A DNA stretch of 64,000 bases from positions 41,742 to 105,741 of the forward strand of contig JBMTCG010000001.1 of the NCBI GenBank assembly GCA_049430665.1. The letters run 5' to 3'. Shown here one piece after another: positions 12,612 to 59,683 of the stretch. The stretch comes from Flavobacteriales bacterium. Lineage in GTDB: Bacteria; Bacteroidota; Bacteroidia; Flavobacteriales_C; GCA-002722245. Position 1 is the stretch's first letter, and each line of letters begins with the position of its first letter. The notes beneath the pieces were generated by a model. The model worked only from the letters and a program-made list of their open reading frames with translations. It did not search any database and was not told the DNA's origin. Both the position numbers and the translations under genes were made by a program.

Positions 12612-12660
12612 CGAAAAGGCACCCTACTTTTGATAGTTTTTGATGTTTTTTGCTGGGGTA

Positions 12661-12699
12661 TTAAAACAAAAAACCGTGCAACCTTCTATTGTTGCACGG
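12661..12699 (-). terminator. intrinsic terminator downstream of tRNA-Asn
   Basis: CCGTGCAAC-CTTCTATT-GTTGCACGG is a 9-bp stem. On the minus strand it is followed by a U-run (complement of AAAAAACAAAA at 12661-12673). Confidence 0.55.
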
Positions 12700-12727
12700 C
12701 TTTGACCACATTTGCTCTCTGGTCTTG

Positions 12728-12801
12728 CTCTCCCTCTTGGACTTGAACCAAGGACCCTCTGATTAACAGTCAGATGCTCTAACCAGCTGAGCTAAGGAAG
12801 A
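12728..12801 (-). tRNA. tRNA-Asn (anticodon GTT)
   Basis: Manual fold of the minus strand gives acceptor TCTTCCT/AGGGAGA (one G-U pair), D-arm GCTC-AGCTGGTTA-GAGC, anticodon arm TCTGA-CTGTTAA-TCAGA (GTT), variable loop GGGTC, T-arm CTTGG-TTCAAGT-CCAAG and discriminator G. CCA is not encoded. A 5' UCC start occurs in E. coli tRNA-Asn too. Confidence 0.8.
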
Positions 12802-12890
12802 ATGGTTTTCCGAAAAACGGAGTGCAATAATAGTTCAAAGTTTGGAATTATGCAATATATTAGCGCCTACAAACGCAAAAAAAATTTATC

Positions 12891-13820
12891 ATGAGCTTAG
12901 TTATCGTTGGAACAGTAGCATTTGACGCTATAGAAACCCCTTTTGGAAAAACAGACAAAATCGTTGGTGGATCAGCTACTTACGTGGGTTTGTCGGCTGC
13001 AAAACTCGGACAAAAACCAAAATTAATTGCAGTGGTTGGAGATGATTTTCCGAAGACTGCCATTGATATGTTGAAGCAAAATAATTTCGATTTAGAAGGT
13101 TTAGAAATCAAAAAAGGAGAAAAAACTTTCTTCTGGTCGGGTAAATATCATTTCGACATGAACTCTCGCGATACTTTGGTTACTGAATTAAATGTGTTGG
13201 CTGGTTTCGACCCTGAAATGCCCGCTTCTTACCAAGATTGCGAATACTTAATGTTGGGAAATTTAGCTCCTGCCATTCAACAAAAAGTGATTAAAAGCAT
13301 GACTAAGCGTCCGAAATTAATCGTTATGGATACCATGAACTTTTGGATGGACATCGCATTAGAAGAGTTGAAACAAACTATTTCTATGGTAGATGTGGTT
13401 ACAGTAAACGACGAAGAAGCGCGCCAATTAACAGGCGAATATTCATTGATTAATGCGGCACACAAAATATTAACCATGGGTCCTAAATACCTTATCATTA
13501 AAAAAGGTGAGCACGGCGCATTATTGTTCGATAAAGAAAGAATGTTCTTCGCTCCTGCCCTTCCATTGGCCGATGTAGTTGACCCTACTGGTGCTGGTGA
13601 TACTTTTGCTGGTGGATTCATTGGCTATATCGCTAAAACGGGTGATATTTCTTTCGATAATTTCAAACGTGCCGTAATTCACGGTTCGGCTTTGGCGTCT
13701 TTCTGTGTGCAAGATTTTGGAACTAAAAGAATGGAAACGTTAACTTACAGTGAAGTTCGCGATAGAATAGATAAGTTTGTGAGCCTAACAAGATTTGAAT
13801 TAGAAGCAGTAGCTTATTAA
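12891..13820 (+). CDS. PfkB-family carbohydrate kinase (ribokinase-like)
   Basis: The DPTGAGDTFAGGF motif is the PfkB signature 2. Size is about 309 aa. Confidence 0.7.
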   Translation: MSLVIVGTVAFDAIETPFGKTDKIVGGSATYVGLSAAKLGQKPKLIAVVGDDFPKTAIDMLKQNNFDLEGLEIKKGEKTFFWSGKYHFDMNSRDTLVTELNVLAGFDPEMPASYQDCEYLMLGNLAPAIQQKVIKSMTKRPKLIVMDTMNFWMDIALEELKQTISMVDVVTVNDEEARQLTGEYSLINAAHKILTMGPKYLIIKKGEHGALLFDKERMFFAPALPLADVVDPTGAGDTFAGGFIGYIAKTGDISFDNFKRAVIHGSALASFCVQDFGTKRMETLTYSEVRDRIDKFVSLTRFELEAVAY

Positions 13821-44683: not shown

Positions 44684-47380
44684 TTATTCTGATTTCGTTT
44701 GCTGCAACACGTTCTTATAAAACTGCGCCAACTCTTTGTCTTTCTCTTTGGCGATGGCCAAGTTGATTTTATCTTCTATTTTCTTTCTTTCTTCTTTAAG
44801 TTTATCAAATTTTTCTTGCATTTGTTTAGCGTCGAAAGAACCTTTTTTGGTGTCTTTGTTGTCGTTGATGTCGCGCTGCAAATCGGCCATTCTTGCATCG
44901 TAATAACCACGCAAACCCGCCATCGCCAAAACAGCTTCCTTTCTTACTTCTACATCGTCATCGTTAGTGGCAATATTGTACAAAGAATCTAATCCTTTGA
45001 AGAAAATTTCTTTTTTCTGTTTCACTAAATACATTCCAAAATGTTCTACCAATTGAGCCTGGCGCGCTCCTTCGTAATGGGCAATGGCATTGGTGTAAAA
45101 GGAGTAGATTTCTTCTTTGTTTTTGTAGCCTTTGTAAATGTCGCCTAGCGTTAATGAAACCCACTCGGCATAAGATTGTTCTTTTTGTTTAATGATGTCG
45201 TAAGCCTCTTCTTTTTTGTAGATAGAATATGCGCGAATGGTAGTTGCCACCACATAATTGCTCGAATCGTTAAAGGTTTTCTTTAATACTGGTTCTGCTT
45301 CTTCGAAAGAATAATTTTTTCTAATGAAGCGAATGGCCGCAGCGCGCACGTGCGATTTAGGGTCTTTCACCGCCAATTTAAAAGTTTTGTCCATTACATC
45401 GGTAAGCAAAGAATCACTTAGTGTAGTGTCGGCCGACAAGTGATCTAAGGCCATTAATTTAATGGCCCAAAACTTATCGTTCAAAGCCGTTACCAAGAAA
45501 TCATCTTTAGTTCTTTTGGGCGTGGTATCTGCCATTACATGCTCAAAAGCTTCATATCTATCAAATATATTTTTGCTTTTTTCAAACTGAGTAAGCCATT
45601 CGTTGGTAGATTTTCTTTCGTTTTTTTCGCACAACAAAACTTTGTCGGCATCAATGCTTACCCATTCTGGTTCGCCATTGGCAATTACTCTAAAAGTATC
45701 GCATTTGTTGGTCATCCAAACGCGTGAACGTTTTGGTTTGCCACCCGAATAAACATCAATATCAATAGGAAAACGATACACGCTCGATTCTAATAAAGGC
45801 TGTGTTTGCTCAACAATCACCGAAATAGAATCGGAAACCTTATCGTAGCGGTAAGAAATATCTAGCATAGGATGTCCTTTGGTAAAGAACCATTGATTGA
45901 AAAACCAATATAAATCTTCGCCCGTAATTTTCTCGAAAGACATGCGCAACTGCGCCATCTCCGTAGATTTAAATTTATTGCTTTCTAGGTAATCTTGAAC
46001 AGCTGCAAAGAAGGCCTCTTCACCCACATAATTGCGCAACATGTGCAACACCAAAGAGCCCTTTTGATAGCTATGTCTGTCGAACATATCGTCGATAAAA
46101 GAATAGTTGTAGCGCACCAATCTTTCCTTTTTGCTTTGTGCTTCATCTAAATAAGCTTGCAAATCCAGTAATCTGTGGTAATCTCCTTCGTCTTTTCCGT
46201 ATTTATGGTCGATCCACAAACACTCGCCCATTGTGGCAAACGATTCATTTAAAGGCAAATTGGCCCACGATTCACAAGTAACCAAATCGCCAAACCAATG
46301 GTGAAAAAGTTCATGCGCTATTACATCTTCATGGTCTTCATCTAACAACTCTTTTTTAGAACGCATCACGTAAGGCGCATGAATCACCGCCGAAGTGTTT
46401 TCCATTGCGCCCCAATGAAACTCGCGCACTATCATTTGAGAATACTTCTCCCAAGGATAAGGCACGCCCAACTTTTGCGAAAAGAAAGTAAGCATCTCGG
46501 GCGTATTGCCAAACACCGCCAAAGCATCGGCAGAATCTTTGTGTTCTACATAATATTCTAGCAATACATTATTCCACTTAGATTTAATCACTGCAAATTC
46601 ACCAACAGCCACCATCACCAAATAAGTAGAATGCGGCAAATCTTGTTTCCAATAATCGGTGCGTGTGCCATCGCTGTTTTTAGTAGAACTTTTGAGCAAA
46701 CCATTGGATAAAGTTTGAAATTGCTCATCTACATTAATGTAAACCTCTTGGGTCATTTTTTCTGCTGTGGCTTCAATGGTAGGAAACCAACAAGAAGAAG
46801 ATTCGGCTTCACCTTGAGTCCAAATTTGTTTGGGTTTGTGCGGATTATTGCCATCAGCATGCACAAAAAACAAACCTTTTTCTTTGTCCTCGGCAATTAA
46901 TTTTTTCTCTAAAAGCTTTTCGGGTTGGGCGGTATAATCAATAAAAATTTTGTACGATTCGGTTCTTTTGTATTCTTTATCCAACTGAATCGCAATGGTT
47001 TTATCGTTGTATTTGTAAGTAAGTTTTTTCTTATTGCCCAAAGAATCGAGCAAAGAAACTTCTTTAATAATCATTCCTTTGGCATCCAATTCCAAAGTTT
47101 TAGTAGCATAGAAATAAGGCTTTAAAGTAAGCGTAGCTTTGCCATACACCTCTTTGTTTTGCCAATTAAAACGAAGATCTAAAACGGTGTGTACTAAATC
47201 TTGTTTTAAAGTACGAGCAGCATGATAAACAGGTCTTTTTTCTGAAACAATAGGTGTTTGCGGAGGAACAACAGTGCTTTTCTTTTGTTGCAACAGCTGA
47301 CAAGCCGAAGCAAATACAGCGAAGGTAAAAGGTAAAAGCCAAAAACGAGTTAGTTTTATCATGCGCACCAATTTCCACAA
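44684..47380 (-). CDS. pepN: M1 family aminopeptidase N with C-terminal HEAT/ARM-like repeats
   Basis: A GAMEN-like motif (WGAMENTSA) upstream of the zinc site HELFHHWFGD…ESFATMGE. Confidence 0.85.
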   Translation of the reverse strand: MWKLVRMIKLTRFWLLPFTFAVFASACQLLQQKKSTVVPPQTPIVSEKRPVYHAARTLKQDLVHTVLDLRFNWQNKEVYGKATLTLKPYFYATKTLELDAKGMIIKEVSLLDSLGNKKKLTYKYNDKTIAIQLDKEYKRTESYKIFIDYTAQPEKLLEKKLIAEDKEKGLFFVHADGNNPHKPKQIWTQGEAESSSCWFPTIEATAEKMTQEVYINVDEQFQTLSNGLLKSSTKNSDGTRTDYWKQDLPHSTYLVMVAVGEFAVIKSKWNNVLLEYYVEHKDSADALAVFGNTPEMLTFFSQKLGVPYPWEKYSQMIVREFHWGAMENTSAVIHAPYVMRSKKELLDEDHEDVIAHELFHHWFGDLVTCESWANLPLNESFATMGECLWIDHKYGKDEGDYHRLLDLQAYLDEAQSKKERLVRYNYSFIDDMFDRHSYQKGSLVLHMLRNYVGEEAFFAAVQDYLESNKFKSTEMAQLRMSFEKITGEDLYWFFNQWFFTKGHPMLDISYRYDKVSDSISVIVEQTQPLLESSVYRFPIDIDVYSGGKPKRSRVWMTNKCDTFRVIANGEPEWVSIDADKVLLCEKNERKSTNEWLTQFEKSKNIFDRYEAFEHVMADTTPKRTKDDFLVTALNDKFWAIKLMALDHLSADTTLSDSLLTDVMDKTFKLAVKDPKSHVRAAAIRFIRKNYSFEEAEPVLKKTFNDSSNYVVATTIRAYSIYKKEEAYDIIKQKEQSYAEWVSLTLGDIYKGYKNKEEIYSFYTNAIAHYEGARQAQLVEHFGMYLVKQKKEIFFKGLDSLYNIATNDDDVEVRKEAVLAMAGLRGYYDARMADLQRDINDNKDTKKGSFDAKQMQEKFDKLKEERKKIEDKINLAIAKEKDKELAQFYKNVLQQTKSE

Positions 47381-47429
47381 ACATAAACAATAGCTTTTTC
47401 AAATAAAATAAATCACGTAAGTTTGTTAC

Positions 47430-47900
47430 ATGTTGCAAATCAAAGTAAACAATCAAGAAATTAAAACGCTTTCGCTTTCTTCTTCTGCCGAAGTAGAGAT
47501 GCTAGAGCCAGGCAGATTTCTTTTGCGCAAAGACAACAAAGTGTTTGAAATATTTTTGTTGGGCGAAAGTGAAGATGGCAACGAGATGGAAATACAAATC
47601 AACCAGCATTATTTCAAAGTAAATATTCAAAATGAGCTCGATCAACTCTTAAACAGTTTGGGCTTTAAGAGCAGCGATGTGAAGAAAGTGAAAGAGTTAA
47701 AATCGCCTATGCCTGGTAAAATAGTGGCGGTGATGGTAAATGAAGGAGATGAAGTGAAGCCTGGACAGCCCCTACTGATTTTAGAAGCCATGAAAATGGA
47801 GAACGCATTGCAGGCCATTTCAGAGGGGAAAGTGGAAAAAATTATGGTAGAAAAAGGAACATCTGTAAATAAGAACGACATATTGATTAAGTTTGCATAA
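47430..47900 (+). CDS. biotin/lipoyl-attachment (BCCP-like) protein
   Basis: EAMKMEN biotinylation motif near the C-terminus. Size is 156 aa. Confidence 0.65.
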   Translation: MLQIKVNNQEIKTLSLSSSAEVEMLEPGRFLLRKDNKVFEIFLLGESEDGNEMEIQINQHYFKVNIQNELDQLLNSLGFKSSDVKKVKELKSPMPGKIVAVMVNEGDEVKPGQPLLILEAMKMENALQAISEGKVEKIMVEKGTSVNKNDILIKFA

Positions 47901-48759
47901 AATAAGAGTGCGTATGTTTAAATATATTTTACCAATAATTACATTGTTTTTTGTTGCTTGTGGAGACAGCGATAACGAAGGAGGAAAACAAAATACACAA
48001 GAAAATTTTGCGCAAAACAACTCTCAGTTTGGCAGAAAAAGAGCTTTGGTGATCAGCAAAGACGGCATAACCTTAACCGAACAAACAGATTACCCAGTAT
48101 TTAAAGATGCGGAAATCACGATGATTAGTCCGAAAGACAAAGCCACCCCAGGCAAAACTAACTTCGAATTTTCTGTAGGCAATTTCACCTTAGGCGAACA
48201 AACCTCTGAACAAGAAAAATTAGGGTTTAAAGGAGAAGAAGACGGCCAATTCATCACCTTCATAAGTAGTGGTCATTTGCCAAAGCATTCGATAGAATCA
48301 ACTATTGAAGAGATGATAAACCCTGGGGAAAACTACGTATTTGCTGCACTAACCCGCTCTTACAACATGTCGGTACACGATGCCGCCAAAGGTTTTGTTT
48401 TTTCTAAAATCACTATTGAAGACAACAACAAATCAAAAATCACCAAACCAACTGGCAGCCACATTGTGCCTTTGAGTCCGATGGGCGAATACCCCTTTGA
48501 ATTCTCTAAAAAAATATTATTAGATTTCTTCTTAATCGATACCAAATTGAGCGATGGCGGAAACTACGTTTTGATTACAATCGACAACACAGAATTTAAA
48601 ATTACCAAATGGGCTTCATTCTCTATTGAAGGGTTGAGTTTTGGTAGTCACAGTATTTCTTTCAAACTGATGGATGCCAAAAATCAAGTGATACCCGGAC
48701 CCTTTAACGACCTTGGTAGAATTGAATTTAGCTTAAAGGAAAAAGAAATTACTTTGTAG
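47893..48759 (+). CDS. lipoprotein, hypothetical
   Basis: Signal peptide plus FFVACGDS lipobox. No family assigned. Confidence 0.4.
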   Translation: MHKIRVRMFKYILPIITLFFVACGDSDNEGGKQNTQENFAQNNSQFGRKRALVISKDGITLTEQTDYPVFKDAEITMISPKDKATPGKTNFEFSVGNFTLGEQTSEQEKLGFKGEEDGQFITFISSGHLPKHSIESTIEEMINPGENYVFAALTRSYNMSVHDAAKGFVFSKITIEDNNKSKITKPTGSHIVPLSPMGEYPFEFSKKILLDFFLIDTKLSDGGNYVLITIDNTEFKITKWASFSIEGLSFGSHSISFKLMDAKNQVIPGPFNDLGRIEFSLKEKEITL

Positions 48760-48761
48760 TA

Positions 48762-49421
48762 CTATTGGTGAATCACCAATATGTCTTCTTTAATCTCGAA
48801 TTTGTAATCTTTAGAATAACCCGCTAAGAAATCTTGCACTTCTTTAACCGTTGGGTAATCTCTTGTGCCGTTGAACAAACGAGCATCGTCAACCAAAATA
48901 ATGTGATTTTTTACTGGGTGCTCTAGCACCGTTTTCAACTCTTTAATGATGGGAGTTTCTAAAACACCTTTGGCGGTGATATCACCCGAATAGTGACCAT
49001 CAAGCCAAAACAAAATAGGCTCATTAATATCTTTAATCACTTGAGGCAACATGCTTCCGCTATCGCCAAAAACGATGTTTACATTTTTATCGTTCTCAAA
49101 TTTCTTGATAGCATTTTTGTATAAAATTTCACTCAACTCAATAGAGTACAATTTTTTAAACTGACCCTTCATAGAATTGATCATGATGCCTAAAAAAGTA
49201 CCGCTTTCTACAAAAACCTGAATGTTGTGTTTGTTGGCAAAATGACGAATAACGTCTTGCTTAGCCGAATGTGGAACAGGAACAGAATTAGGATTAGACG
49301 CTCTTTGTTTAATGAACTCATTGTTCGATTGATCATATATCTTTTGCAAAGCATCAATTCTCATTTTCTCATAAACAGATGTTGGCAAAAATGTGCGTAA
49401 GAGCGTTTCTTTAATCTTCAT
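48762..49421 (-). CDS. class I SAM-dependent methyltransferase (TylF/MycF-like, candidate)
   Basis: VFVESGTFLGIMI is a motif I-like Rossmann segment. ILVDDA and WLDGHY segments are also present. This is a weak call. Confidence 0.35.
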   Translation of the reverse strand: MKIKETLLRTFLPTSVYEKMRIDALQKIYDQSNNEFIKQRASNPNSVPVPHSAKQDVIRHFANKHNIQVFVESGTFLGIMINSMKGQFKKLYSIELSEILYKNAIKKFENDKNVNIVFGDSGSMLPQVIKDINEPILFWLDGHYSGDITAKGVLETPIIKELKTVLEHPVKNHIILVDDARLFNGTRDYPTVKEVQDFLAGYSKDYKFEIKEDILVIHQ

Positions 49422-49523
49422 ATCTTAATTTTTCTAAAGTGGCGAAGGTAGCTAATTTTCTAGCGCTCTAAAAATGGAATTTTAGCTATCTTAGTGGCGC
49501 AGCAACAAAAATTCTGAAACAGC

Positions 49524-50642
49524 ATGATTTATCAAGGTATTGCCATGTCGAATCGCTTTCCTTCGGGAAGAAAAAGCGTAACTATTGAAATCGGATTGAG
49601 CGACATCGTGTTTTCTTTAGACGAAGAAAAAATTCGCTTCTCATTGCAAGGTACCGACATTAGCGTAGGTGGCGCTTCAGATAGATTGATTTATTTCAAT
49701 CATCCATCTCATCCCGATATTTCTTTTTACACCACCGATAAAAAAATACTGAAAGACCCTAATTTACATTACCACGAACACGCGCAAAGCGGCGTGAAAA
49801 AAGTAAAGAAAACAAGAGCCATCAATTGGACAATTTGGTTGAGCATCTTAGGATTTTTCCTTGCCATCATTCTTTCGCTCTTCATCTTTAGAACAAACAT
49901 AATGAAAGGCGTGGCCAACCAAGTTCCGCCATCATGGGAAAAAGAAGTAGGCGACAAACTTTTTGAAGAAGTTAAAACAGAATACAAATTGATTAAAGAT
50001 TCTGCATTGATTGCCGAACTTACACAAACCTTGCAGCCATTGGTAAATGGCATTGGCGACACCTCTTTTCATTTTAAATTTTACATCGCCAACAATCCAA
50101 CAATGAACGCTTTTGCTATGCCGGGGGGCAATGTAGTAATACACTCGGGTATTATTCAAAAAGCAGCGTCGTGGGAAGAATTGATGGGTGTTTTAGCGCA
50201 CGAGTTAGCGCACGTTACACAGCGTCATCATGTGCGTGGCATCATTTCTAACTTAGGCATTTATGTGGCACTTTCTGCATTGGTGGGCGATGCCAGCGCA
50301 TTATTGGGAACCTTAGCTCAAGCAAGTGGCTCTTTAACTTCTTTGAAAACCAGCAGAGAATACGAAACCGAATCAGATGAAACAGGATGGCAATATTTAT
50401 TAAATGCCAACATCAATCCCGAAGGAATGATAGGTATGTTTAAAAAATTACAAAAAGAATATCCCGAAGACAAAGACACCGAAGAGCTCACTTCTTTGAT
50501 AAGCAGTCACCCTGCTATTGGCGAAAGAATTGAATTGTTAACCACAAAGAAAAGTGAATTAAAAAACAAAAAAATCATCACATTTAAAAATTCTTTTGAT
50601 ACATTTAAAACGCGCTTAAAAACAGATTTAGATAAACAATAA
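49524..50642 (+). CDS. M48 family zinc metallopeptidase with N-terminal cytoplasmic domain and TM anchor
   Basis: HELAHVTQRH HExxH motif plus the downstream E…D, and a TM helix (WTIWLSILGFFLAIILSLFIF). Confidence 0.75.
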   Translation: MIYQGIAMSNRFPSGRKSVTIEIGLSDIVFSLDEEKIRFSLQGTDISVGGASDRLIYFNHPSHPDISFYTTDKKILKDPNLHYHEHAQSGVKKVKKTRAINWTIWLSILGFFLAIILSLFIFRTNIMKGVANQVPPSWEKEVGDKLFEEVKTEYKLIKDSALIAELTQTLQPLVNGIGDTSFHFKFYIANNPTMNAFAMPGGNVVIHSGIIQKAASWEELMGVLAHELAHVTQRHHVRGIISNLGIYVALSALVGDASALLGTLAQASGSLTSLKTSREYETESDETGWQYLLNANINPEGMIGMFKKLQKEYPEDKDTEELTSLISSHPAIGERIELLTTKKSELKNKKIITFKNSFDTFKTRLKTDLDKQ

Positions 50643-50645
50643 CAG

Positions 50646-51305
50646 ATGGAAATTAATTTAACAGGAAAACCTGCTTTCAATTACGTAAACGTAGATTTAC
50701 AGCCAGGTGAAACCATTATTGCCGAAGCAGATGCTATGGCAAGTATGGCCGCCGAATTAACAATGGAAGCCAAAATGAACGGCGGATTTTTTGGCGGATT
50801 GGTAAAAAAATATGTGGGCGGAGAAAGCTTCTTCGTAAATCACGTTACCAACAACAGCAACGCTGTAAAACGCATTACACTAACACAACCAACACCTGGC
50901 GACATGAAAGTGCTAGAACTTAATGGCGACAGCTATTGCCTGCAAGGCGGTGCCTATGTGGCGTCAACTCCGGGAGTGAAATTGGGCGTTAAGTGGGCTG
51001 GTATCGCTTCTTTCATTGGTGGCGAAGGATTATTTAAACTTCAAGTTTCTGGCACAGGAAAAGTGATTTTTGGTGCTTACGGTGCTTTAATAGAAAAAGA
51101 AATTGATGGCGAATACATTGTAGATTCGAGTCATTTGGTGGGTTATACTCCCGATATGAAATTGAAAATGCAACTATCAGGAGGCATTTTCTCTAGCTTC
51201 TTTGGTGGCGAAGGACTCGTTACAAGAGTAGAAGGAAAAGGCAAAATCATCATTCAATCGCGCAGCGTGAGCGGACTCACAAAGTGGTTAAATAAATTCT
51301 TTTAA
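50646..51305 (+). CDS. AIM24/TIGR00266 (DUF124) family protein, paralog 1
   Basis: The GEsfF, GGEGLF and GG-GE motifs are spaced as in AIM24-family proteins. It is one of three tandem paralogs. Confidence 0.6.
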   Translation: MEINLTGKPAFNYVNVDLQPGETIIAEADAMASMAAELTMEAKMNGGFFGGLVKKYVGGESFFVNHVTNNSNAVKRITLTQPTPGDMKVLELNGDSYCLQGGAYVASTPGVKLGVKWAGIASFIGGEGLFKLQVSGTGKVIFGAYGALIEKEIDGEYIVDSSHLVGYTPDMKLKMQLSGGIFSSFFGGEGLVTRVEGKGKIIIQSRSVSGLTKWLNKFF

Positions 51306-51349
51306 CCCAGCTAACATTGAACTTTAAACATTAAACATTGAACTAATTT

Positions 51350-52027
51350 ATGAATGTTAAGATAGAAAAAGGTCCGGGTGCAGCAGCTGCAAAAGTAACC
51401 TTACTTCCCGGAGAATCATTCACTGCAGAAGCAGGTGCGATGATAGCCATGAGCGACAATTTACAAATTGAAACAACCACACATAAAAAGAATTCGCGCG
51501 GCATTATGAAAGCCATCAAAAGAATGGTTTCGGGCGAAAGTTTTTTCTTAAATCATTTCACTGCAGGTTCTCAAGGTGGCGAAGTGTATTTGGGTACAGC
51601 ATTGCCTGGCGACATGTTTACTTACGAATTGAATGGCGATAAACTAATCGTTCAGGCTGGTTCTTACGTAGCTTCAGATCATGATGTAAACATTGAATTC
51701 AACTGGCAAGGTTTCAAATCTTTGTTCTCTGGCGAAAGTGCATTTTGGTTGAGTGCCAGCGGAAGAGGAACAGTAATTTTAAATTCATTTGGCGCTATTT
51801 ATCCTATTGAAGTTGATGGCGAATACATTGTAGATACAGGTCACATCGTAGCTTTTCAAGAAAGCTTAAATTTCAGTATTTCAAAAGCGGGAACAAGTTG
51901 GATTAATTCTTATTTCGGCGGAGAAGGCTTAGTTTGTCGCTTCAAAGGAAAAGGAATAGTTTGGTGCCAATCGCACAACGATAACTCATTTGGATTTACT
52001 TTAACTCCTGGATTAACACCTAGATAA
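51350..52027 (+). CDS. AIM24/TIGR00266 family protein, paralog 2
   Basis: Same motif pattern (SGESFFLNHF … GGEGLVCRFKGKG). It is tandem to paralog 1. Confidence 0.6.
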   Translation: MNVKIEKGPGAAAAKVTLLPGESFTAEAGAMIAMSDNLQIETTTHKKNSRGIMKAIKRMVSGESFFLNHFTAGSQGGEVYLGTALPGDMFTYELNGDKLIVQAGSYVASDHDVNIEFNWQGFKSLFSGESAFWLSASGRGTVILNSFGAIYPIEVDGEYIVDTGHIVAFQESLNFSISKAGTSWINSYFGGEGLVCRFKGKGIVWCQSHNDNSFGFTLTPGLTPR

Positions 52028-52028
52028 A

Positions 52029-52703
52029 ATGGAAAACACATTCGAACATTATATGGAAGGACAACCCGATTACGCGTTGTTAACCGTTAAAATTCCTTCG
52101 GGAAAAACATTAAAAGTAGAGGCTTCGGCCATGGCTACCATGGATACGAACCTTAAAATGAAAACCAAGATGAAAGGCGGCTTGGGCCGTTTACTCACTG
52201 GCGAATCTATTTTCATTAACGATTTTACTGCCGAAAATGGTGATGCAGAAATTAAAATCGCTCCTTCTTCTCCAGGTGATTTGGTGCGCTATGCCATGAA
52301 TGGCAGCGAAACTTTCTATTTGCAAAGCTCGGCTTTTGTGGCTTCTGCTCCATCGGTAACCGTTAATTCTAAATGGCAAGGGTTCAAAGGATTTTTTAGC
52401 GGTGCTGGATTGTTCTTGGCGCAGGTAAGCGGACAAGGCGATCTTTGGTTCAACTCCTTTGGTGGAATTTTAGAGATAGATGTAAAAGATTCTTATGTAG
52501 TTGACACTGGAAATATAGTGGCGTTCACTGGTGGATTACAATACCAAGTAACGCGCTTTGGCGGATACAAATCTTTGTTCTTCTCTGGCGAAGGATTGGT
52601 GTGCCGATTTAGCGGTGAAGGTAAAGTGTGGATTCAAACGCGCAAACCTGGTCCAATGGCTTCCTGGGCTTATCCATTTAGACCAGAAGGCAAAAACAAT
52701 TAA
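52029..52703 (+). CDS. AIM24/TIGR00266 family protein, paralog 3
   Basis: Same motif pattern (TGESIFINDF … SGEGLVCRFSGEG). It starts 1 nt after the stop of paralog 2. Confidence 0.6.
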   Translation: MENTFEHYMEGQPDYALLTVKIPSGKTLKVEASAMATMDTNLKMKTKMKGGLGRLLTGESIFINDFTAENGDAEIKIAPSSPGDLVRYAMNGSETFYLQSSAFVASAPSVTVNSKWQGFKGFFSGAGLFLAQVSGQGDLWFNSFGGILEIDVKDSYVVDTGNIVAFTGGLQYQVTRFGGYKSLFFSGEGLVCRFSGEGKVWIQTRKPGPMASWAYPFRPEGKNN

Positions 52704-52711
52704 ACACTAAT

Positions 52712-55700
52712 GTGACTTCATCAAAAAGAAATATTGTAATAAGCAGTGGTTTGGCGATAGCTCTGCTGCTTATTACTTCTTTCCTCTATTTTCAACACAG
52801 CGCCAACAACCTAAGCACTTCTCTACAAGAAAATTTCGCGCAAGAACTTAGCGCACAGCAAAAATTACTACAACTAGAACTAAGTAATCTAGCCACTCAA
52901 AACAACAACGAAGAAGAACTGCTCAGCACCAAATTTTTAGCGTTCAAAAACTTGTATGAAAAAGAAGGTATAAGTCTCTTCATCTACAAAGATTCTTCCC
53001 TAGTTTTTTGGAGCAACAACGAAGAACCTATCGACAATTTATTATTGACCAAAGATGGATTTTTGAATTCGTTGGGTGGATTTTACGAGAAAATCTCTCT
53101 GCAAAAAAACAACAAAACTTATGTGGCCTTGCTCACCATTAAACAAGAGCATCAATTTGAAAATTCATTTGTAAACACCACCTTTCAAAAAAGATTTACG
53201 CTACCTAAAAACGTTGATATCACTGTAGATAATAAAATAAGTGACTTTCCTTCCTTATCAAATAATTACTTGCATCTCGATTTCTCAAAGGCCGAAAATC
53301 ACAGCAACATCACGGTTTCATTCATAGAATTTTTCGCAATTTTACTATTGCTTTTTGCGCTCTTCCACACAATTAAAAACACTGCGCTTTTCATCTCCTG
53401 TTTGCTATTACTAAGATATTTATTGCTCGAATTTCAATTTCCTTTTCATCTCTACGAAGCAACATTAATGGCCCCCGAATTCTTTGCTTACTCAACGTGG
53501 TTACCCTCTTTAGGAGATTTGTTGTTGCACAGCATTTTTGCTCTTACATTCATTCTGTTCATTGCCAAACAAGAAATTAAATTGAATGCAGCGCCACGAA
53601 TTACAACATTCCTTGTGCTCTTCGCGCTGCTATGTGCCTCCGTATTGCTTTCAGAAACCATTGAAGTTTTGGTTTTCAACTCGAATGTTGAATTGGATGT
53701 AAAAAAAGTATTCGCCCTCGATTTCTACAGTTTTACGAGTCTGTTCATCATCTTAATTTTAATGTATTCTTTCCTGCTCTTCGCCATTAAAATGAGCAAA
53801 GTATTGAAAGAAAACAATATTGAAAACAAGTTGATTGCAAGCAACATCATCATTTGTTTAAGTATCGCATGTATATTCTATTTTGTATTAGATGAGATAG
53901 ATGACATTTACACTTTGTTACTTATTATTCCTATTGCTGCTATACTGTTCTTCCGCACCTACAAAGGATATTCCACGTTTGAGCCAAGTTCTACGGTGTT
54001 TCTAATGCTCTTTATTTCCTTCTATGTTTCGGCCGTTTTAGAAAACAATTTAGAGCGCAAAGAAAAAAATTACCGCAAACAAAAAATATCGTTGATGTCG
54101 ACTAACCGCGACCCCATTGCCGAATACCTTTTTAACAGTGTTGTACCTAAAATTAAGAGTGATAGCATACTTTTTTATATCGACGATTCTTTGCTTACCA
54201 TTCAATATTTAAGAGAAAATTTCTCTGATAAATATTGGGATAAATACGATTTAAATGTGGTAAACAACGATGATCTTTCAAAGATGGAAATGATTTATCC
54301 TAATCTTTTTCATTCAGAAAATTTATCGAAAAATGGAGCCTATATTGCCGAATTTCCCTTGCCGGAAAATCACAAATTTCATGTATCACTCACCCCCAGA
54401 GATATGCCCGATGAGCCAGGATTTCCGGTACTTTTGGTAAACAAAGAAACCGAAAACAACACTTTAAATGCCGAATACTCATCAGCCAAATATTACGATG
54501 GAAAATTGGTGAACAATAATGGCGCTTACCACTACCCTTTGGCGCTCTCTTCTTTCACCAATAACAACGATGAAGAATTTCAATGGTTGGAAACAAATGG
54601 ATACAATCATTTGCTTTACCGAATCGACAAAAATTCAAGCATCATCATCAGCTTAGAATCGTGGGGCGTATGGAATTTATTTTCTGTTTATTCTTACCTC
54701 TTCATCTTGTTTTGCTTAATTGCACTAGTCTCTTTCTCACTCTCCTATCTATTTTCTCACTCTCCAGTTCAGCCATCGTTTAAAAACCGACTACAATTCA
54801 GTATGCTTATTTTGCTTTTTTTCTCAGCAGTAATGACGGGTGCTGGTTCGGTATATTATATAAGCAAACAATACAACAAAAAGAACGAAGAAGCCATTAC
54901 TGAGAAAATAAAATCGGTGAAGATGGGTGTAGAACGCCGACTCAAACGCAGAAATGGTTTTAGCGACAAAGAATTGATACAAGAAAAACTTGATAGATAC
55001 TCTAAAATATTTTTTAGTGATATCAATCTTTTCGATGCCAATGGAAGAATAATTGCTTCTTCACGCAACGAAATTTTTAGCGAAGGTTTACTGTCGCAAA
55101 ACATGCACCCACAAGCTTTCTATCAAATGCATTATTTGCACAAAACGCATTACACGCAAACCGAAGAAATCGAATCGATGAAATATCTATCGGCTTATAC
55201 TCCTTTTTTCGATGACAAAAGCAAAGTAATGGGTTACCTTAATTTGCCTTATTTCTCTCGACAAAATGAATTGAGTACAGAGATTTCGAACTTCTTGGTG
55301 GCCTTGGTAAACATTTACGGATTGTTGGTAGTATTATCACTTTTAGCTGCTTTAGTAGTGTCAAATTATATTACCAAACCACTTAGTATCATTCAAGAAA
55401 AATTGAAAAATATTTCATTAGGCAAACGCAACGAAATGATTCAATGGAGTGGCACTGATGAAATTGGAAGTTTGGTTTCTGAATACAATAGAAAGGTTTT
55501 AGAATTGAGCGAAAGTGCAGAAAAATTAGCCAAATCGGAACGTGAAGGTGCATGGCGTGAAATGGCTAAACAGGTAGCACACGAAATTAAAAATCCGCTC
55601 ACACCCATGAAGCTCAATGTGCAATATTTAAAACGTTTGTACAAGGATATTCCACAAGATGAATTTGAAGAAAGACTCACCAAAATTTCAAACAGTTTAA

Positions 55701-56221
55701 TTGAACAAATTGATACGCTCTCGAACATTGCTACTGAATTTTCGAACTTCGCGCGCATGCCCGATCCTGTTTTGGAAGAAGTAGATATGTTGAGTGTATT
55801 AGAAAATTGTCAGCAACTCTATTCCGATAAAGAGGAAGTAAAAATTAACATAGAAAATCACGCTAAAAATACTTTGGTAAAAGCTGATAAAGATCAAATG
55901 TTGCGCGTTTTCAATAACTTGGTGAAAAATGCCATTCAATCTATACCCGAGGATAGAAGCGGAAAAATTGAAATGATTCTTAAAAATTTGAACAACAAAA
56001 TTATCATTGAAATTCGCGACAATGGAAAAGGAATTTCTGAAGACGTTAAAGAGAAAATTTTTATTCCTAATTTCACAACGAAGAATTCGGGCATGGGGCT
56101 CGGACTCGCCATGGTGAAAAAAATGATAGAAGGGATTGATGGTAAAATTTGGTTTGAAAGCACCGAAAATATCGGCACTACATTTTATATAGAATTGCCA
56201 ACATTGAACATTGAACATTAA
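52712..56221 (+). CDS. very large multi-TM sensor histidine kinase (periplasmic N-domain, polytopic membrane region, second sensor region, HAMP, HisKA, HATPase_c)
   Basis: H-box AHEIKNPLTPM. N, G1 and G2 boxes (NLVKNAIQS … IRDNGKGI … GMGLGLAMVKKM). There are at least 8 hydrophobic helices. No receiver domain is present. Confidence 0.8.
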   Translation: MTSSKRNIVISSGLAIALLLITSFLYFQHSANNLSTSLQENFAQELSAQQKLLQLELSNLATQNNNEEELLSTKFLAFKNLYEKEGISLFIYKDSSLVFWSNNEEPIDNLLLTKDGFLNSLGGFYEKISLQKNNKTYVALLTIKQEHQFENSFVNTTFQKRFTLPKNVDITVDNKISDFPSLSNNYLHLDFSKAENHSNITVSFIEFFAILLLLFALFHTIKNTALFISCLLLLRYLLLEFQFPFHLYEATLMAPEFFAYSTWLPSLGDLLLHSIFALTFILFIAKQEIKLNAAPRITTFLVLFALLCASVLLSETIEVLVFNSNVELDVKKVFALDFYSFTSLFIILILMYSFLLFAIKMSKVLKENNIENKLIASNIIICLSIACIFYFVLDEIDDIYTLLLIIPIAAILFFRTYKGYSTFEPSSTVFLMLFISFYVSAVLENNLERKEKNYRKQKISLMSTNRDPIAEYLFNSVVPKIKSDSILFYIDDSLLTIQYLRENFSDKYWDKYDLNVVNNDDLSKMEMIYPNLFHSENLSKNGAYIAEFPLPENHKFHVSLTPRDMPDEPGFPVLLVNKETENNTLNAEYSSAKYYDGKLVNNNGAYHYPLALSSFTNNNDEEFQWLETNGYNHLLYRIDKNSSIIISLESWGVWNLFSVYSYLFILFCLIALVSFSLSYLFSHSPVQPSFKNRLQFSMLILLFFSAVMTGAGSVYYISKQYNKKNEEAITEKIKSVKMGVERRLKRRNGFSDKELIQEKLDRYSKIFFSDINLFDANGRIIASSRNEIFSEGLLSQNMHPQAFYQMHYLHKTHYTQTEEIESMKYLSAYTPFFDDKSKVMGYLNLPYFSRQNELSTEISNFLVALVNIYGLLVVLSLLAALVVSNYITKPLSIIQEKLKNISLGKRNEMIQWSGTDEIGSLVSEYNRKVLELSESAEKLAKSEREGAWREMAKQVAHEIKNPLTPMKLNVQYLKRLYKDIPQDEFEERLTKISNSLIEQIDTLSNIATEFSNFARMPDPVLEEVDMLSVLENCQQLYSDKEEVKINIENHAKNTLVKADKDQMLRVFNNLVKNAIQSIPEDRSGKIEMILKNLNNKIIIEIRDNGKGISEDVKEKIFIPNFTTKNSGMGLGLAMVKKMIEGIDGKIWFESTENIGTTFYIELPTLNIEH

Positions 56222-56235
56222 ACTTTGAACTAAAT

Positions 56236-57198
56236 ATGAAATACACTATTGGAATCGACATTGGAGGAACCAACACAGAAATTGGATTGGTAGATGAAAA
56301 CGGACACGTTGTAGCTTACAAAAACTTATCTACAAAGGCTTATCCGGTTTTTGAAATGTTTGTAGATACTTTATCTGATGAAATTAAAACCATCATCAAC
56401 GCCAACAAAGACAAGGAATGTTTAGGTATTGGTATTGGTGCGCCAAACGCGAACTATTACAACGGTATGATTCAAGAAGCCGTGAATTTGTTGTGGAGAG
56501 GTGATTTACCATTGAAAAAAGAAGTAGAAAAACGAACAGGCTTAAGCGTTTATGTTACCAACGATGCGAACGCTGCTGCTATTGGTGAAAAACTATTTGG
56601 TGCTGCTAAAGGTATGCGCGATTTCGCTGTTATTACTTTGGGTACAGGCGTGGGCTCTGGCATTGTAGTAAATGACGAAATGGTGTATGGTCACGATGGA
56701 TTTGCAGGTGAGCTAGGACACATCATCATTGAAGAAAACGGACGCTTATGCAACTGCGGAAGATACGGCTGTTTGGAGACTTACGCTTCTGTTACGGGCT
56801 TGGTAAATACTGCCCGACAAATGGCAGAAAACTATACAGGTAATTCAACTTTAAAAGCTGTAGGCAAGGAAAATATCACAGGTAAAATGATTGGTGATGC
56901 TGCGCGTGATGGCGATGAATTGGCAATTGAAATTTTCGATTACACTGCAAGAAAATTAGGAATAGGCTTGGCAAATTTGGTTGCTATCACAAGACCAGAA
57001 GCCATAATTTTATACGGTGGTATGGTTAAAGCCAACGAAGTATTGCTTGTACCAACAGAAAAATACATGAACGAATTCATGCTACACATGTGGAAAGGAA
57101 AAGTGAAATTGTTGAAATCAACTCTGCCTGGTCCGAACGCCGCAATTGTTGGCGCCGCTGCATTAGCTGCTGAAGAAGTTAGTAAAGGAAGAAAATAA
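56236..57198 (+). CDS. ROK-family glucokinase
   Basis: N-terminal IGIDIGGTNTEIGLV and the ROK zinc motif CNCGRYGCLETYAS. Confidence 0.8.
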   Translation: MKYTIGIDIGGTNTEIGLVDENGHVVAYKNLSTKAYPVFEMFVDTLSDEIKTIINANKDKECLGIGIGAPNANYYNGMIQEAVNLLWRGDLPLKKEVEKRTGLSVYVTNDANAAAIGEKLFGAAKGMRDFAVITLGTGVGSGIVVNDEMVYGHDGFAGELGHIIIEENGRLCNCGRYGCLETYASVTGLVNTARQMAENYTGNSTLKAVGKENITGKMIGDAARDGDELAIEIFDYTARKLGIGLANLVAITRPEAIILYGGMVKANEVLLVPTEKYMNEFMLHMWKGKVKLLKSTLPGPNAAIVGAAALAAEEVSKGRK

Positions 57199-57206
57199 AT
57201 AAGTAG

Positions 57207-57300
57207 GGCAATAGTCCCGTCGGTTTAAGGGTGACAACTACTACTCAAGTAACACTTACCCAGTATGTCATCCTGAGGTACCCCGAAGGAACTATTGTCC
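57207..57300. repeat. second copy of the palindromic interspersed element (right arm 57266-57300 exact; left arm degenerate)
   Basis: CTTACCCAGTATGTCATCCTGAGGTACCCCGAAGGAACTATTGTCC matches copy 1 (2642-2741) over 46 nt with one mismatch. The left arm GGGCAATAGTCCCGTCGG…GGTGACAA is a diverged partner. Confidence 0.7.
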
Positions 57301-57319
57301 TGCACATCAAACCACAATT

Positions 57320-58093
57320 ATGAGCTACACCAATATCATATCACAAATTGCGGATGGAATCTCCACCATCACCATCAACCGTCCGCAACAACTCAATGTG
57401 CTCAACAAACAAACCATTGAAGAGTTAAACTCCGCATTGAATGAATTAGAAAATAATGCGTCTGTGCGTGTTGTCATCATCACAGGTGCTGGTGAAAAAG
57501 CATTTGTTGCTGGTGCCGACATCAAAGAATTTGCTCAATTCTCTACCGAACAAGGCAAACAACTGAGCGCCAAAGGTCACGAATTGTTGTTCGATAAAGT
57601 CGCCAATTTCTCCAAACCTGTTATTGCAGCCATCAACGGATTTGCATTGGGTGGAGGGTTGGAATTAGCCATGGCTTGTCACATTAGAATTGCCTCTGAA
57701 AATGCACGTATGGGCTTACCTGAAGTCGGACTTGGCGTTATCCCTGGCTATGGCGGAACACAGCGCTTACCTCAACTCATTGGCAAATCAAAAGCCATGG
57801 AAATGATTCTCACAGCCGAAATGATTGATGTTAAAATTGCATTGCACTACGGCTTGATAAATCGCGTAGTTCCATCAACAGAATTACTCGCAAAAGCGAC
57901 CGACATCGCAAAAAAAATAATGAAGAATTCTCCTATGGCTTTAACGTCTGCTATAAAAGCGGTAAATGCCAATTATACTGATGGTCTAAACGGTTTTGCA
58001 GAAGAAATAAAACTCTTTGGTGAATGCTTCGGCACCAAAGATTTTGAGGAAGGAACCACTGCATTTTTAGAAAAAAGAAAAGCGAATTTTTAA
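57320..58093 (+). CDS. enoyl-CoA hydratase/isomerase family protein
   Basis: Crotonase fold motifs AAINGFALGGGLELAMACH and the catalytic Glu context. Confidence 0.85.
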   Translation: MSYTNIISQIADGISTITINRPQQLNVLNKQTIEELNSALNELENNASVRVVIITGAGEKAFVAGADIKEFAQFSTEQGKQLSAKGHELLFDKVANFSKPVIAAINGFALGGGLELAMACHIRIASENARMGLPEVGLGVIPGYGGTQRLPQLIGKSKAMEMILTAEMIDVKIALHYGLINRVVPSTELLAKATDIAKKIMKNSPMALTSAIKAVNANYTDGLNGFAEEIKLFGECFGTKDFEEGTTAFLEKRKANF

Positions 58094-58174
58094 GAAATAT
58101 AAACAATCAAATCTTAATAGTTCCTGCCATTTATAAGTGCACAAACAAGAGTTTAGGCCTATCTTCGAAGCCTA

Positions 58175-59683
58175 ATGAGTGCAATTAAAAAATTACTCGG
58201 ACAAACAGCCGTTTACGGACTAAGCAGCATATTGGGCAGAATGGCCAATTACCTCTTGCTTACTCCCCTTTTTGCACGCGTTTTTTCTGTTGAACAATTT
58301 GGCGTAATCACCAACACCTACTCATGGGTGGCCATGATGATTATTTTCTTTACTTACGGTTTAGAAACTGGTTTTTTCCGTTATGCCTCGTCACATGAAG
58401 ACCGCAAAGATGAGGTGTATTCTACCGCCTTTATCTCTGTGCTATCCACCTCCATTCTTTTGGTGGGCGCTATTGTCTTCTTCTCTCAAGATATTGCTAA
58501 TGCAATGAAATATCCCGACCATAGTGAGTTCATCACCTATCTTGGCATAATCGTAGGTATCGATGCGTTAACCGCCATTCCGTTTGCTGGTTTAAGAATG
58601 AAGGAAAAGGCTAAAAAATTTGCATTTATACGATTGTTCTCATTGGGTGTAAATATTTTCCTCAATTTCTTCTTTTATGTACTTTGCCCTTACCTCACTA
58701 GTGAATACAACTACGAGTGGTTCAACAAATTGATTTATTTAGTTTACGAACCACATGTTGGTGTTCGCTATGTCTTTATTGCGAACCTCATAGCTAGCAT
58801 TGTGACCTTCTTACTACTGCTTCCCGAAATTGTAAATCACCGTTGGAAATTCGATGTTCCTCTTTGGAAAAAGCTAATTCCTTACTCAGCACCCATGCTT
58901 TTTGTTGGCGTTGCTGGAGCGGTAAATCAGCATTTCGATAAATTAGTGACCAACTACCTATTACCCGAAAAATTAGCCTTACACGAAATTGGAATTTACG
59001 GCGCCATATTCAAATTGTCTATCATGATTACGCTGTTTATTCAAGCCTATCAATACGCTGGAGAACCCTTCTTCTTCAAGAAAAGTAAAGATGTTGATGC
59101 TAAAAAAACCTTCGCTGATGTTGCCAAATATTTCACACTAATTACCTGTATCGGTTTCTTGGGAATTATGCTGGGGGCCGAACTTTTACTCAATACTCTT
59201 TTAGGCAAAGAAGAATTTAAAGAAGGTTTATTTGTGTTGCCGCTAATTATGATGGGCTCTATCTTTTACGGCATTTACTATAGCTTAAGCAACTGGTATA
59301 AGTTGAGCAACAAAACATATTTTGGCGGACTCATTTCCTCTTTCGGAAGCGTGATTACCTTGGTGGGTAATTTCTTGCTAATTCCCTTTTTCGAAAAGCT
59401 AATGCCTGGCAAAGGCTACTTGGGTTGCGCCATTACCAACTTTACGTGTTATTTGGCGATGGTGGTGATTTCGTATTATCTCGGACAAAAATATTACCCC
59501 ATCAACTATCCAGTAAAACGTATTTTATTCTATTTGGCTTTGGCCATGGCACTTGTAGCGGTAGATATGCTCATCACTTCACACCTTGGCACAGTGCTTA
59601 GATATTCTATTTCAAGCGTACTGTTTTTGGGCTACATAGCATTGGCTTACATTTTAGAAAAACCGAAAAAAATTATACCTTAG
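58175..59683 (+). CDS. polysaccharide biosynthesis/oligosaccharide flippase-family (MOP superfamily) membrane protein
   Basis: Predicted polytopic membrane protein of about 500 aa, with about 12-14 helices. This is the typical Wzx-like architecture. Confidence 0.55.

Follow-up and report, generated by a model that had tools for sequence, protein, structure and literature searches.

A conserved gene cassette joins a membrane-anchored M48 protease bearing a PH-like domain to three AIM24 paralogs in several bacterial phyla

The stretch of DNA analyzed here (hereafter, the window) comprises 64,000 nucleotides of a Flavobacteriales assembly (GCA_049430665.1, contig JBMTCG010000001.1, positions 41,742 to 105,741) and encodes a cluster of five same-strand genes: an M48-family zinc metalloprotease, three paralogs of the AIM24 (TIGR00266) family, which we designate A1, A2 and A3, and a very large sensor histidine kinase. 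A preliminary description of this DNA, made from its sequence alone, had proposed that the five genes constitute a signaling module. Comparison with other genomes suggests, with high confidence, that the functional unit is instead a four-gene operon, made up of the protease gene and the AIM24 triplet and present in at least five bacterial phyla. The best explanation for this arrangement, to which we assign a probability of roughly 60%, is that the four genes encode a functional partnership between the protease and the AIM24 proteins.

The evidence for the four-gene unit stems primarily from a species-level scan (one genome per species, 185,579 species) using an alignment of A3 orthologs as the query, which identified A3 relatives encoded in 307 genomes. 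The best 80 loci among these relatives, all with an A3 protein at least 64% identical, were surveyed in detail, and their open reading frames (ORFs) were classified using profiles derived from the five initial cassettes. Within the Bacteroidota, the surveyed loci belong to the Flavobacteriales, Chitinophagales, Sphingobacteriales and Marinilabiliales; the remainder originate in the Verrucomicrobiota, Sumerlaeota and Bdellovibrionales, in the Gammaproteobacteria (Steroidobacter, Hahella, Reinekea, Moraxellaceae and Agarilytica) and in the Betaproteobacteria (Undibacterium). Phylum assignments resting on record titles alone should be treated with care. Several records of metagenome-assembled genomes (MAGs; L007, L009, L023, L039, L045 and L070) bear species names that are implausible given what they contain, among them isolates titled 'Klebsiella pneumoniae', 'Akkermansia muciniphila', 'Chryseobacterium gleum' and 'Chitinophaga pinensis'.

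The A1-A2-A3 triplet is intact and identically ordered in 74 of the 80 loci, the other six being cut by contig ends, and its order does not vary in any locus where the contig allows it to be read. The protease gene lies directly upstream of A1 in 59 of 69 evaluable loci (57 identified by a strict script, plus L032 and L070, which present overlapping ORF calls), and the median gaps separating M48, A1, A2 and A3 are 3, 11 and 9 nt across the 61 loci that have the full set of four. The presence of the same gene order in dozens of distant genomes indicates that the cluster is not a product of chance. The association is also apparent when the protease is taken as the starting point, with the triplet found downstream of an M48 homolog in seven of eight sampled cases. 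Four sampled homologs with decreasing identity to the window protease (66%, 43%, 40% and 35%), from Bacteroidota, Verrucomicrobiota and an unassigned metagenome, are each followed by three same-strand AIM24 genes, in neighborhoods lacking a histidine kinase. The link between the M48 gene and the AIM24 triplet drawn in the preliminary description is hence upheld as a conserved and tightly packed arrangement spanning several phyla.

The same four genes are present in the complete genomes of two cultured Cytophagales, Flammeovirga kamogawensis YS10 and Aureibacter tunicatorum NBRC 107587, where RefSeq labels them 'M48 family metallopeptidase' and, three times over, 'TIGR00266 family protein'. Further cultured carriers include Undibacterium pigrum DSM 19792, Hahella ganghwensis DSM 17046, Reinekea marinisedimentorum DSM 15388, Breznakibacter xylanolyticus DSM 6779, Mucilaginibacter sp. 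Bleaf8 and Steroidobacter species. Clustering of neighboring genes over the 80 loci revealed no further neighbor conserved across lineages; the largest cross-lineage clusters consist of apparently antisense ORFs of high-GC genomes, and the remaining ones are attributable to lineage-specific synteny. Furthermore, the identity matrices of the four genes correlate pairwise (r 0.51-0.87), as would be expected for inheritance as a unit, with shared phylogeny contributing to the correlation.

In the window, the ORF list reproduces exactly the five forward-strand genes of the preliminary description, with their coordinates (49524-56221 overall) and their gaps of 3, 44, 1 and 8 nt, and matches to Pfam and NCBIfam agree with the families it had assigned to them (Table 1). 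All proteins of the cluster recur, identical and with the same gene calls, in a Flavobacteriales MAG contig (GCA_049429285.1). Promoter and terminator scans over positions 47000-58500 performed no better than on shuffled sequence. The Bacteroidota-type promoter motif TAnnTTTG was not found on the forward strand in the 102 nt upstream of the M48 gene.

Table 1. Coordinates of the cassette, its predicted domains and the adjacent kinase gene in the window
Feature	Position	Strand	Support
PH-TM-M48 zinc metalloprotease, bitopic, 372 aa, cassette gene 1	49524-50642	+	Pfam Peptidase_M48
PH-like domain, residues 1-82, predicted cytoplasmic	49524-49769	+	
Single transmembrane (TM) helix, residues ~99-122	49818-49889	+	Hydropathy peak 2.72; within modeled helix 85-121
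BepA-like M48 catalytic domain, residues 123-372, predicted periplasmic	49890-50639	+	
HExxH motif, residues 226-230	50199-50213	+	
AIM24 paralog A1, 219 aa, predicted cytoplasmic	50646-51305	+	TIGR00266 195.1 bits
AIM24 paralog A2, 225 aa, predicted cytoplasmic	51350-52027	+	TIGR00266 188.9 bits
AIM24 paralog A3, 224 aa, predicted cytoplasmic	52029-52703	+	TIGR00266 205.4 bits
Polytopic HAMP-HisKA-HATPase sensor kinase, 1169 aa, GTG start	52712-56221	+	HisKA, HATPase_c

The protease encoded by the first gene of the cassette matches Peptidase_M48 (PF01435) with 97.2 bits (cutoff 20.3) over residues 165-340, leaving its N-terminal ~135 residues unmatched. In an AlphaFold2 model computed with 48 homologs (pLDDT, the model's confidence score, 86.9), residues 1-82 comprise seven beta-strands and, after them, short helices, and residues 85-121 form one long helix; the hydropathy scan detects a single strong membrane segment, at residues 104-122. 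The N-terminal domain is confidently modeled as a PH-like fold, with the seven-stranded beta-sandwich and C-terminal helix cap that define this superfold. Searched in isolation against Pfam, this domain returned no match with E-values up to 1, and its profile matched 484 proteins among 1.84 billion representatives. Nearly all of the 150 matches listed carry the domain at their N-terminus and most are 360-450 aa long, the shorter ones being fragment-like. Since its matches are nearly confined to this architecture, the domain appears to be dedicated to this subfamily of proteases, which gives substance to the N-terminal domain that the preliminary description had singled out as unusual. Within the domain, G49 and G50 are invariant among the 48 homologs, and F30 and D72 nearly so. 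The secondary-structure assignment places G49-G50 at the end of strand 5 and D72 ahead of the C-terminal helix, elements that would correspond to those lining the peptide groove of PTB-type domains. Separately, positions 22-66 of the PH-domain profile match in part at nine places of a single 3093-aa protein (P0344), which could consist of repeats of a related beta-hairpin unit, unless the matches are an artifact of composition.

Residues H226, E227, H230, E281 and D285 of the catalytic domain are invariant in the 48 homologs and include the HExxH motif and a downstream glutamate, so that, judging by its residues, the active site of the protease is intact. Positively charged residues (K/R) within 15 positions of the TM helix average 5.3 on its N-terminal side versus 2.5 on its C-terminal side, and this positive-inside bias favors a cytoplasmic N-terminus in 46 of the 48 homologs. 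The protease is consequently predicted to be a bitopic inner-membrane protein, with the PH-like domain in the cytoplasm and the M48 domain in the periplasm. The catalytic fold, with its HExxH motif and downstream glutamate, is the one found in BepA (YfgC) and in the soluble M48 protein of Geobacter (PDB ID: 3C37), which are the best matches of the protease both in sequence (phmmer; 3C37 E 7.9e-33, BepA E 1.2e-17) and in structure (Foldseek; 3C37 E 1.7e-12, BepA E 2.7e-9). A hydrophobic helical segment located after the HExxH motif has its counterpart in the soluble, periplasmic BepA of E. coli.

Two known families were considered and rejected as orthologs of the cassette protease, since its scores fall far below both sets of cutoffs. 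Against the BepA model (NF052400) it obtains 109.7 bits, with a cutoff of 570, over profile positions 44-265 of 483; its structural model lacks a TPR region and, in place of a signal peptide, its N-terminus holds the PH-like domain, which together with the membrane anchor sets it apart from BepA. Co-encoding with three AIM24 genes is likewise a feature of the cassette protease and not of BepA. Against HtpX models it scores ~31 bits or less, with cutoffs of 245-422, and it has one strong TM segment rather than the four of HtpX.

The three AIM24 proteins all score well above the NCBIfam cutoff for TIGR00266 (96.6 bits) and obtain 200-226 bits with the Pfam AIM24 model, their relatives in the PDB being 1PG6 and 1YOX. 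The A1, A2 and A3 proteins of the window are mutually 36-39% identical. Across phyla, orthologs are 51-89% (A1), 54-85% (A2) and 61-90% (A3) identical, while any two paralogs share just 29-43% identity. Furthermore, each paralog presents conserved motifs of its own, including distinct C-terminal tails, such as the WCQSHN..sFG motif at the C-terminus of A2 and the sw..pfRP motif in the tail of A3. These comparisons indicate that the triplication is ancient and that three distinct lineages have been kept in fixed order. Because each position is occupied by a separate and highly conserved orthologous lineage, assembly of A1, A2 and A3 into a hetero-oligomer is plausible, and the fact that the three lineages strictly co-occur, together with the trimer modeled for their plant homologs (PMC6677890), may point more specifically to a hetero-trimer. 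No segment of A1, A2 or A3 exceeds the threshold of the hydropathy scan, and on this basis the three proteins are taken as cytoplasmic.

The functions reported for eukaryotic members of the family offer a precedent. The plant AIM24 proteins PAWH1/2 bind and stabilize the Hrd1 complex of endoplasmic reticulum-associated degradation (ERAD), and modeling on bacterial 1YOX and 1PG6 depicts them as trimers with a flat face and with C-terminal helices directed at the membrane, each monomer comprising three TRAP-like beta-sandwich repeats (PMC6677890). PAWH1/2 with Hrd1 and yeast Aim24 with MICOS are instances of AIM24 proteins acting as non-catalytic stabilizers of membrane complexes (PMC6677890, PMC8633786). 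Eukaryotic AIM24 proteins belong to single- or two-gene families and often possess a membrane anchor of their own, whereas the cassette contains three ancient, soluble paralogs and a protease with a dedicated PH-like domain. By analogy with these systems, the bacterial triplet may be the scaffold or the regulator of a membrane quality-control protease. The FtsH-HflK/C and NfeD-stomatin operons likewise combine a membrane-anchored quality-control protease with oligomeric, membrane-proximal, non-enzymatic partners, and the cassette would be analogous to them. It differs from both in that the partners are AIM24 rather than SPFH proteins, and in that they are predicted to be soluble and to lie across the membrane from the catalytic domain.

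In the mechanism that we propose for this partnership, A1, A2 and A3 would assemble into a cytoplasmic hetero-oligomer, most simply a 1:1:1 trimer, which would sit at the inner membrane face and bind the dedicated PH-like domain of the protease. It is the PH-like domain, and not the catalytic domain, that would be in the same compartment as the AIM24 proteins, and the pairing would link a scaffold or regulator in the cytoplasm to a quality-control protease in the periplasm, generating a trans-membrane proteostasis module. The strongest version of this proposal, a single trans-membrane machine whose cytoplasmic AIM24 ring, docked on the PH-like domain, would control the periplasmic quality-control protease or report on it, is a tentative one, which we regard as possible rather than probable.

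Several observations weigh against the proposed partnership. A common phylogeny confounds the correlation among the four identity matrices, and the predicted topology draws on two elements, the charge bias around the TM helix and family resemblance. A paper from 2019 states that nothing is known of any bacterial AIM24 protein (PMC6677890). In 10 of the 69 evaluable loci no M48 gene adjoins the triplet, and one verrucomicrobial gene for a protease with the PH-like domain (L091) has no triplet beside it, which together imply that the partnership is not obligatorily encoded in cis. The ten M48-less loci comprise four from Flavobacteriales, where the gene upstream of A1 encodes a MoxR ATPase or a PAS-SpoIIE phosphatase, and six of verrucomicrobial type (L045, L049, L056, L062, L064 and L065; L062 was deposited as 'Proteobacteria bacterium'), which harbor a fused A3.

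In this fused form, an N-terminal GYF_2 domain (Pfam E 6e-11 in L045, 7737-8660) and a GGPPPLP-rich linker precede the AIM24 region of A3. The group encompasses L039, L045, L046, L049, L056, L058 and L062-L065, labeled mostly as Verrucomicrobiota or Pedosphaera. The six loci that have lost the adjacent M48 gene represent most of those with sufficient upstream sequence, and L039 and L058 retain it 400-600 nt upstream. The A3 proteins of Gamma- and Betaproteobacteria feature a different N-terminal extension of ~110-140 aa (L025 7641-8645, L037 7587-8645 and L074 7605-8663, among others), composed of a ~70-aa domain, whose resemblance to the ribosomal protein L7/L12 C-terminal domain is weak and does not reach the Pfam cutoff (best E 9e-5), and a Pro/Ala-rich linker after it. 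These fusions mark A3 as the putative partner-recruiting subunit of the triplet.

The M48-less triplets, the solitary protease gene of L091 and the A3 fusions lend support to a second explanation, according to which the AIM24 triplet is an autonomous cytoplasmic hetero-oligomer with an activity of its own and the protease is merely co-regulated with it, with no physical contact between them. In line with this explanation, the AIM24 proteins are considerably more conserved than the protease (mean pairwise identities of 60%, 62% and 67% for A1, A2 and A3, versus 38% for M48), A3 acquires N-terminal domains of its own in particular lineages, and AIM24 proteins elsewhere are mostly single-domain singletons (PMC6677890). 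Set against this, the PH-like domain is almost exclusive to the very M48 subfamily that precedes the triplet in seven of the eight sampled cases, and the persistence of few-nt gaps across phyla suggests a shared transcript and, possibly, translational coupling. We therefore view an autonomous triplet as a serious but doubtful alternative to the partnership of protease and AIM24 proteins.

Some of the surveyed loci carry additional genes of these families. L051 (5060-5917), L054 (6613-7488), L076 (4120-4980) and L080 (11779-12639), labeled mostly as Moraxellaceae, contain a second M48-family gene, distinct from the first, a short distance past the cassette and on the reverse strand, opposite to that of the cassette; it scores ~92-95 bits with the M48 profile and is devoid of a PH domain. 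Another M48 gene is present at the edge of locus L093 (10797-11116). In Hahella sp. NBU794 (L084), an extra singleton AIM24 gene (12168-12920, reverse strand) is located ~3.5 kb downstream of the triplet and, with only 116 bits to the A1 profile, is assigned to a different AIM24 lineage.

The explanation advanced in the preliminary description, in which all five genes form one signaling module that links an orphan kinase to both the protease and the AIM24 proteins, hinges on the sensor kinase. Its C-terminus matches HisKA (32.3 bits) and HATPase_c (81 bits), both above Pfam cutoffs. Where the preliminary description counted at least eight TM helices, the hydropathy scan revealed ~12 hydrophobic membrane segments; the accompanying count of two extracytoplasmic regions gives way to three predicted ones (residues ~27-199, 444-662 and 713-864, if all 12 segments span the membrane). 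Residues 759-843 show a weak, below-threshold match of Cache-like character. No response regulator had been noticed near the kinase, and in agreement with this we detected no receiver domain in the window using a small profile built from three E. coli sequences; nor was a response regulator called in L001, L087 or L088. The kinase hence appears to be an orphan as far as its genomic surroundings indicate, a circumstance that fits the five-gene module. So does its position, 8 nt after A3 on the same strand and with no terminator-like site found between them, which makes its co-transcription with the cassette likely in this clade only. Kinase and cassette also remain adjacent in four related genomes, despite divergence of the kinase down to 53% identity.

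The neighborhood data nonetheless refute the five-gene module as a general model. An ortholog of the kinase is found downstream of A3 in just 4 of 62 evaluable loci (L007, L008, L009 and L013, the last also represented by L088), all of them from close Flavobacteriales relatives of the window, and L010-L012, with A3 proteins 88-90% identical, do not have it. Iterated searches over the 80 loci with the kinase catalytic core and the receiver domain identified no other adjacent kinase or regulator. Furthermore, the kinase belongs to a family of ~1,200-aa proteins that occurs Bacteroidota-wide and aligns over its full length at 30-38% identity, and a 36%-identical ortholog has no M48 or AIM24 gene nearby. 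The preliminary description had named a lack of co-localization in other genomes as the outcome that would disprove its proposal, and for the kinase this is the outcome obtained. Its restriction to four loci of close relatives, along with the occurrence of its family in the absence of the cassette, argues against membership of the kinase in the module.

The genes that follow the kinase offer another affiliation for it. A gene encoding a ROK-family sugar kinase starts 14 nt past the histidine kinase gene and is followed by one for an enoyl-CoA hydratase (56236-58093), and the succession of cassette, kinase, ROK kinase and enoyl-CoA hydratase is preserved around the 53%-identical ortholog in L088, suggesting that the histidine kinase may belong to this downstream block. 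We conclude with high confidence, on the strength of gene neighborhoods, that the histidine kinase, with the ROK kinase after it, is a lineage-specific syntenic neighbor and not a component of the cassette, leaving the five-gene module a very improbable explanation. Nothing in this analysis points to two-component signaling, and annotations should not read the adjacent giant kinase as part of the cassette system.

A third alternative views the cassette as a mobile stress-resistance or anti-phage island, akin to Ter systems or to abortive infection. The distribution of the cassette is patchy across phyla, with A3 proteins 64-70% identical between Bacteroidota and Proteobacteria, and in the two cultured Cytophagales it resides on large secondary replicons (megaplasmids). 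In addition, the passage of PMC5822837 that cites Anantharaman, Iyer and Aravind (2012) describes AIM24 genes adjoining TerD genes in a conserved neighborhood, supposed to encode a membrane-associated stress complex. The arrangement outlined in that passage involves a single AIM24 gene, unlike the fixed triplet with M48 of the cassette, and in the 11 contexts inspected neither the gene calls nor the annotations included TerD, TerB or TerC. Moreover, none of the five proteins matched PADLOC-DB 2.0 with E-values up to 0.01, the A3 alignment identified no relative in 2.9 million viral contigs, both megaplasmids are typed as non-mobilizable, and the genes flanking the cassette are ordinary and differ between lineages. 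An origin of the cassette as a mobile island is thus very improbable. Finally, we regard as extremely unlikely that the M48 domain is cytoplasmic and either processes or is inhibited by the AIM24 proteins, given that, however common co-encoded proteases and substrates or inhibitors are, and however conserved the C-terminal tails of the AIM24 proteins, the charge bias places the catalytic domain outside in nearly all homologs, this domain resembles that of periplasmic BepA and not of cytoplasm-facing HtpX, and export of a 100-residue N-terminal domain without a signal peptide would be unusual.

Two ORFs immediately upstream of the cassette in the window have no Pfam or NCBIfam match. The first (48762-49421, reverse strand) encodes 219 aa and diverges from the M48 gene; its sole match is a weak one to the PADLOC 'mad2' model (E 4e-5), and it is not kept beside the cassette in other genomes. 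The second (47893-48759, forward strand) encodes 288 aa from a TTG start (281 aa in the MAG calls) and lies directly downstream of a biotin-carboxyl-carrier-like gene (47430-47900).

The M48 and AIM24 components of the cassette are ordinary when considered separately, and it is the PH-TM-M48 architecture, as well as its operon with three fixed AIM24 lineages, that appear to be undescribed: our literature search returned no publication pairing 'AIM24' with 'M48', nor any on bacterial AIM24 function. The AIM24 family is represented by two structural-genomics crystal structures and by clear phenotypes in yeast mitochondria and plant ERAD. By tying three fixed AIM24 lineages to a protease with a dedicated PH-like domain, the cassette makes AIM24 function testable, and therein lies its interest. 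It supplies concrete hypotheses for the partner (the PH-like domain), the stoichiometry (1:1:1), the location (the inner membrane face) and the process (envelope or membrane proteostasis). If the single trans-membrane machine outlined above exists, it would constitute the first biochemical role for a bacterial AIM24 protein, and would suggest that the roles of eukaryotic AIM24 proteins in ERAD and in the organization of the mitochondrial inner membrane trace back to an ancestral pairing of a protease with a scaffold.

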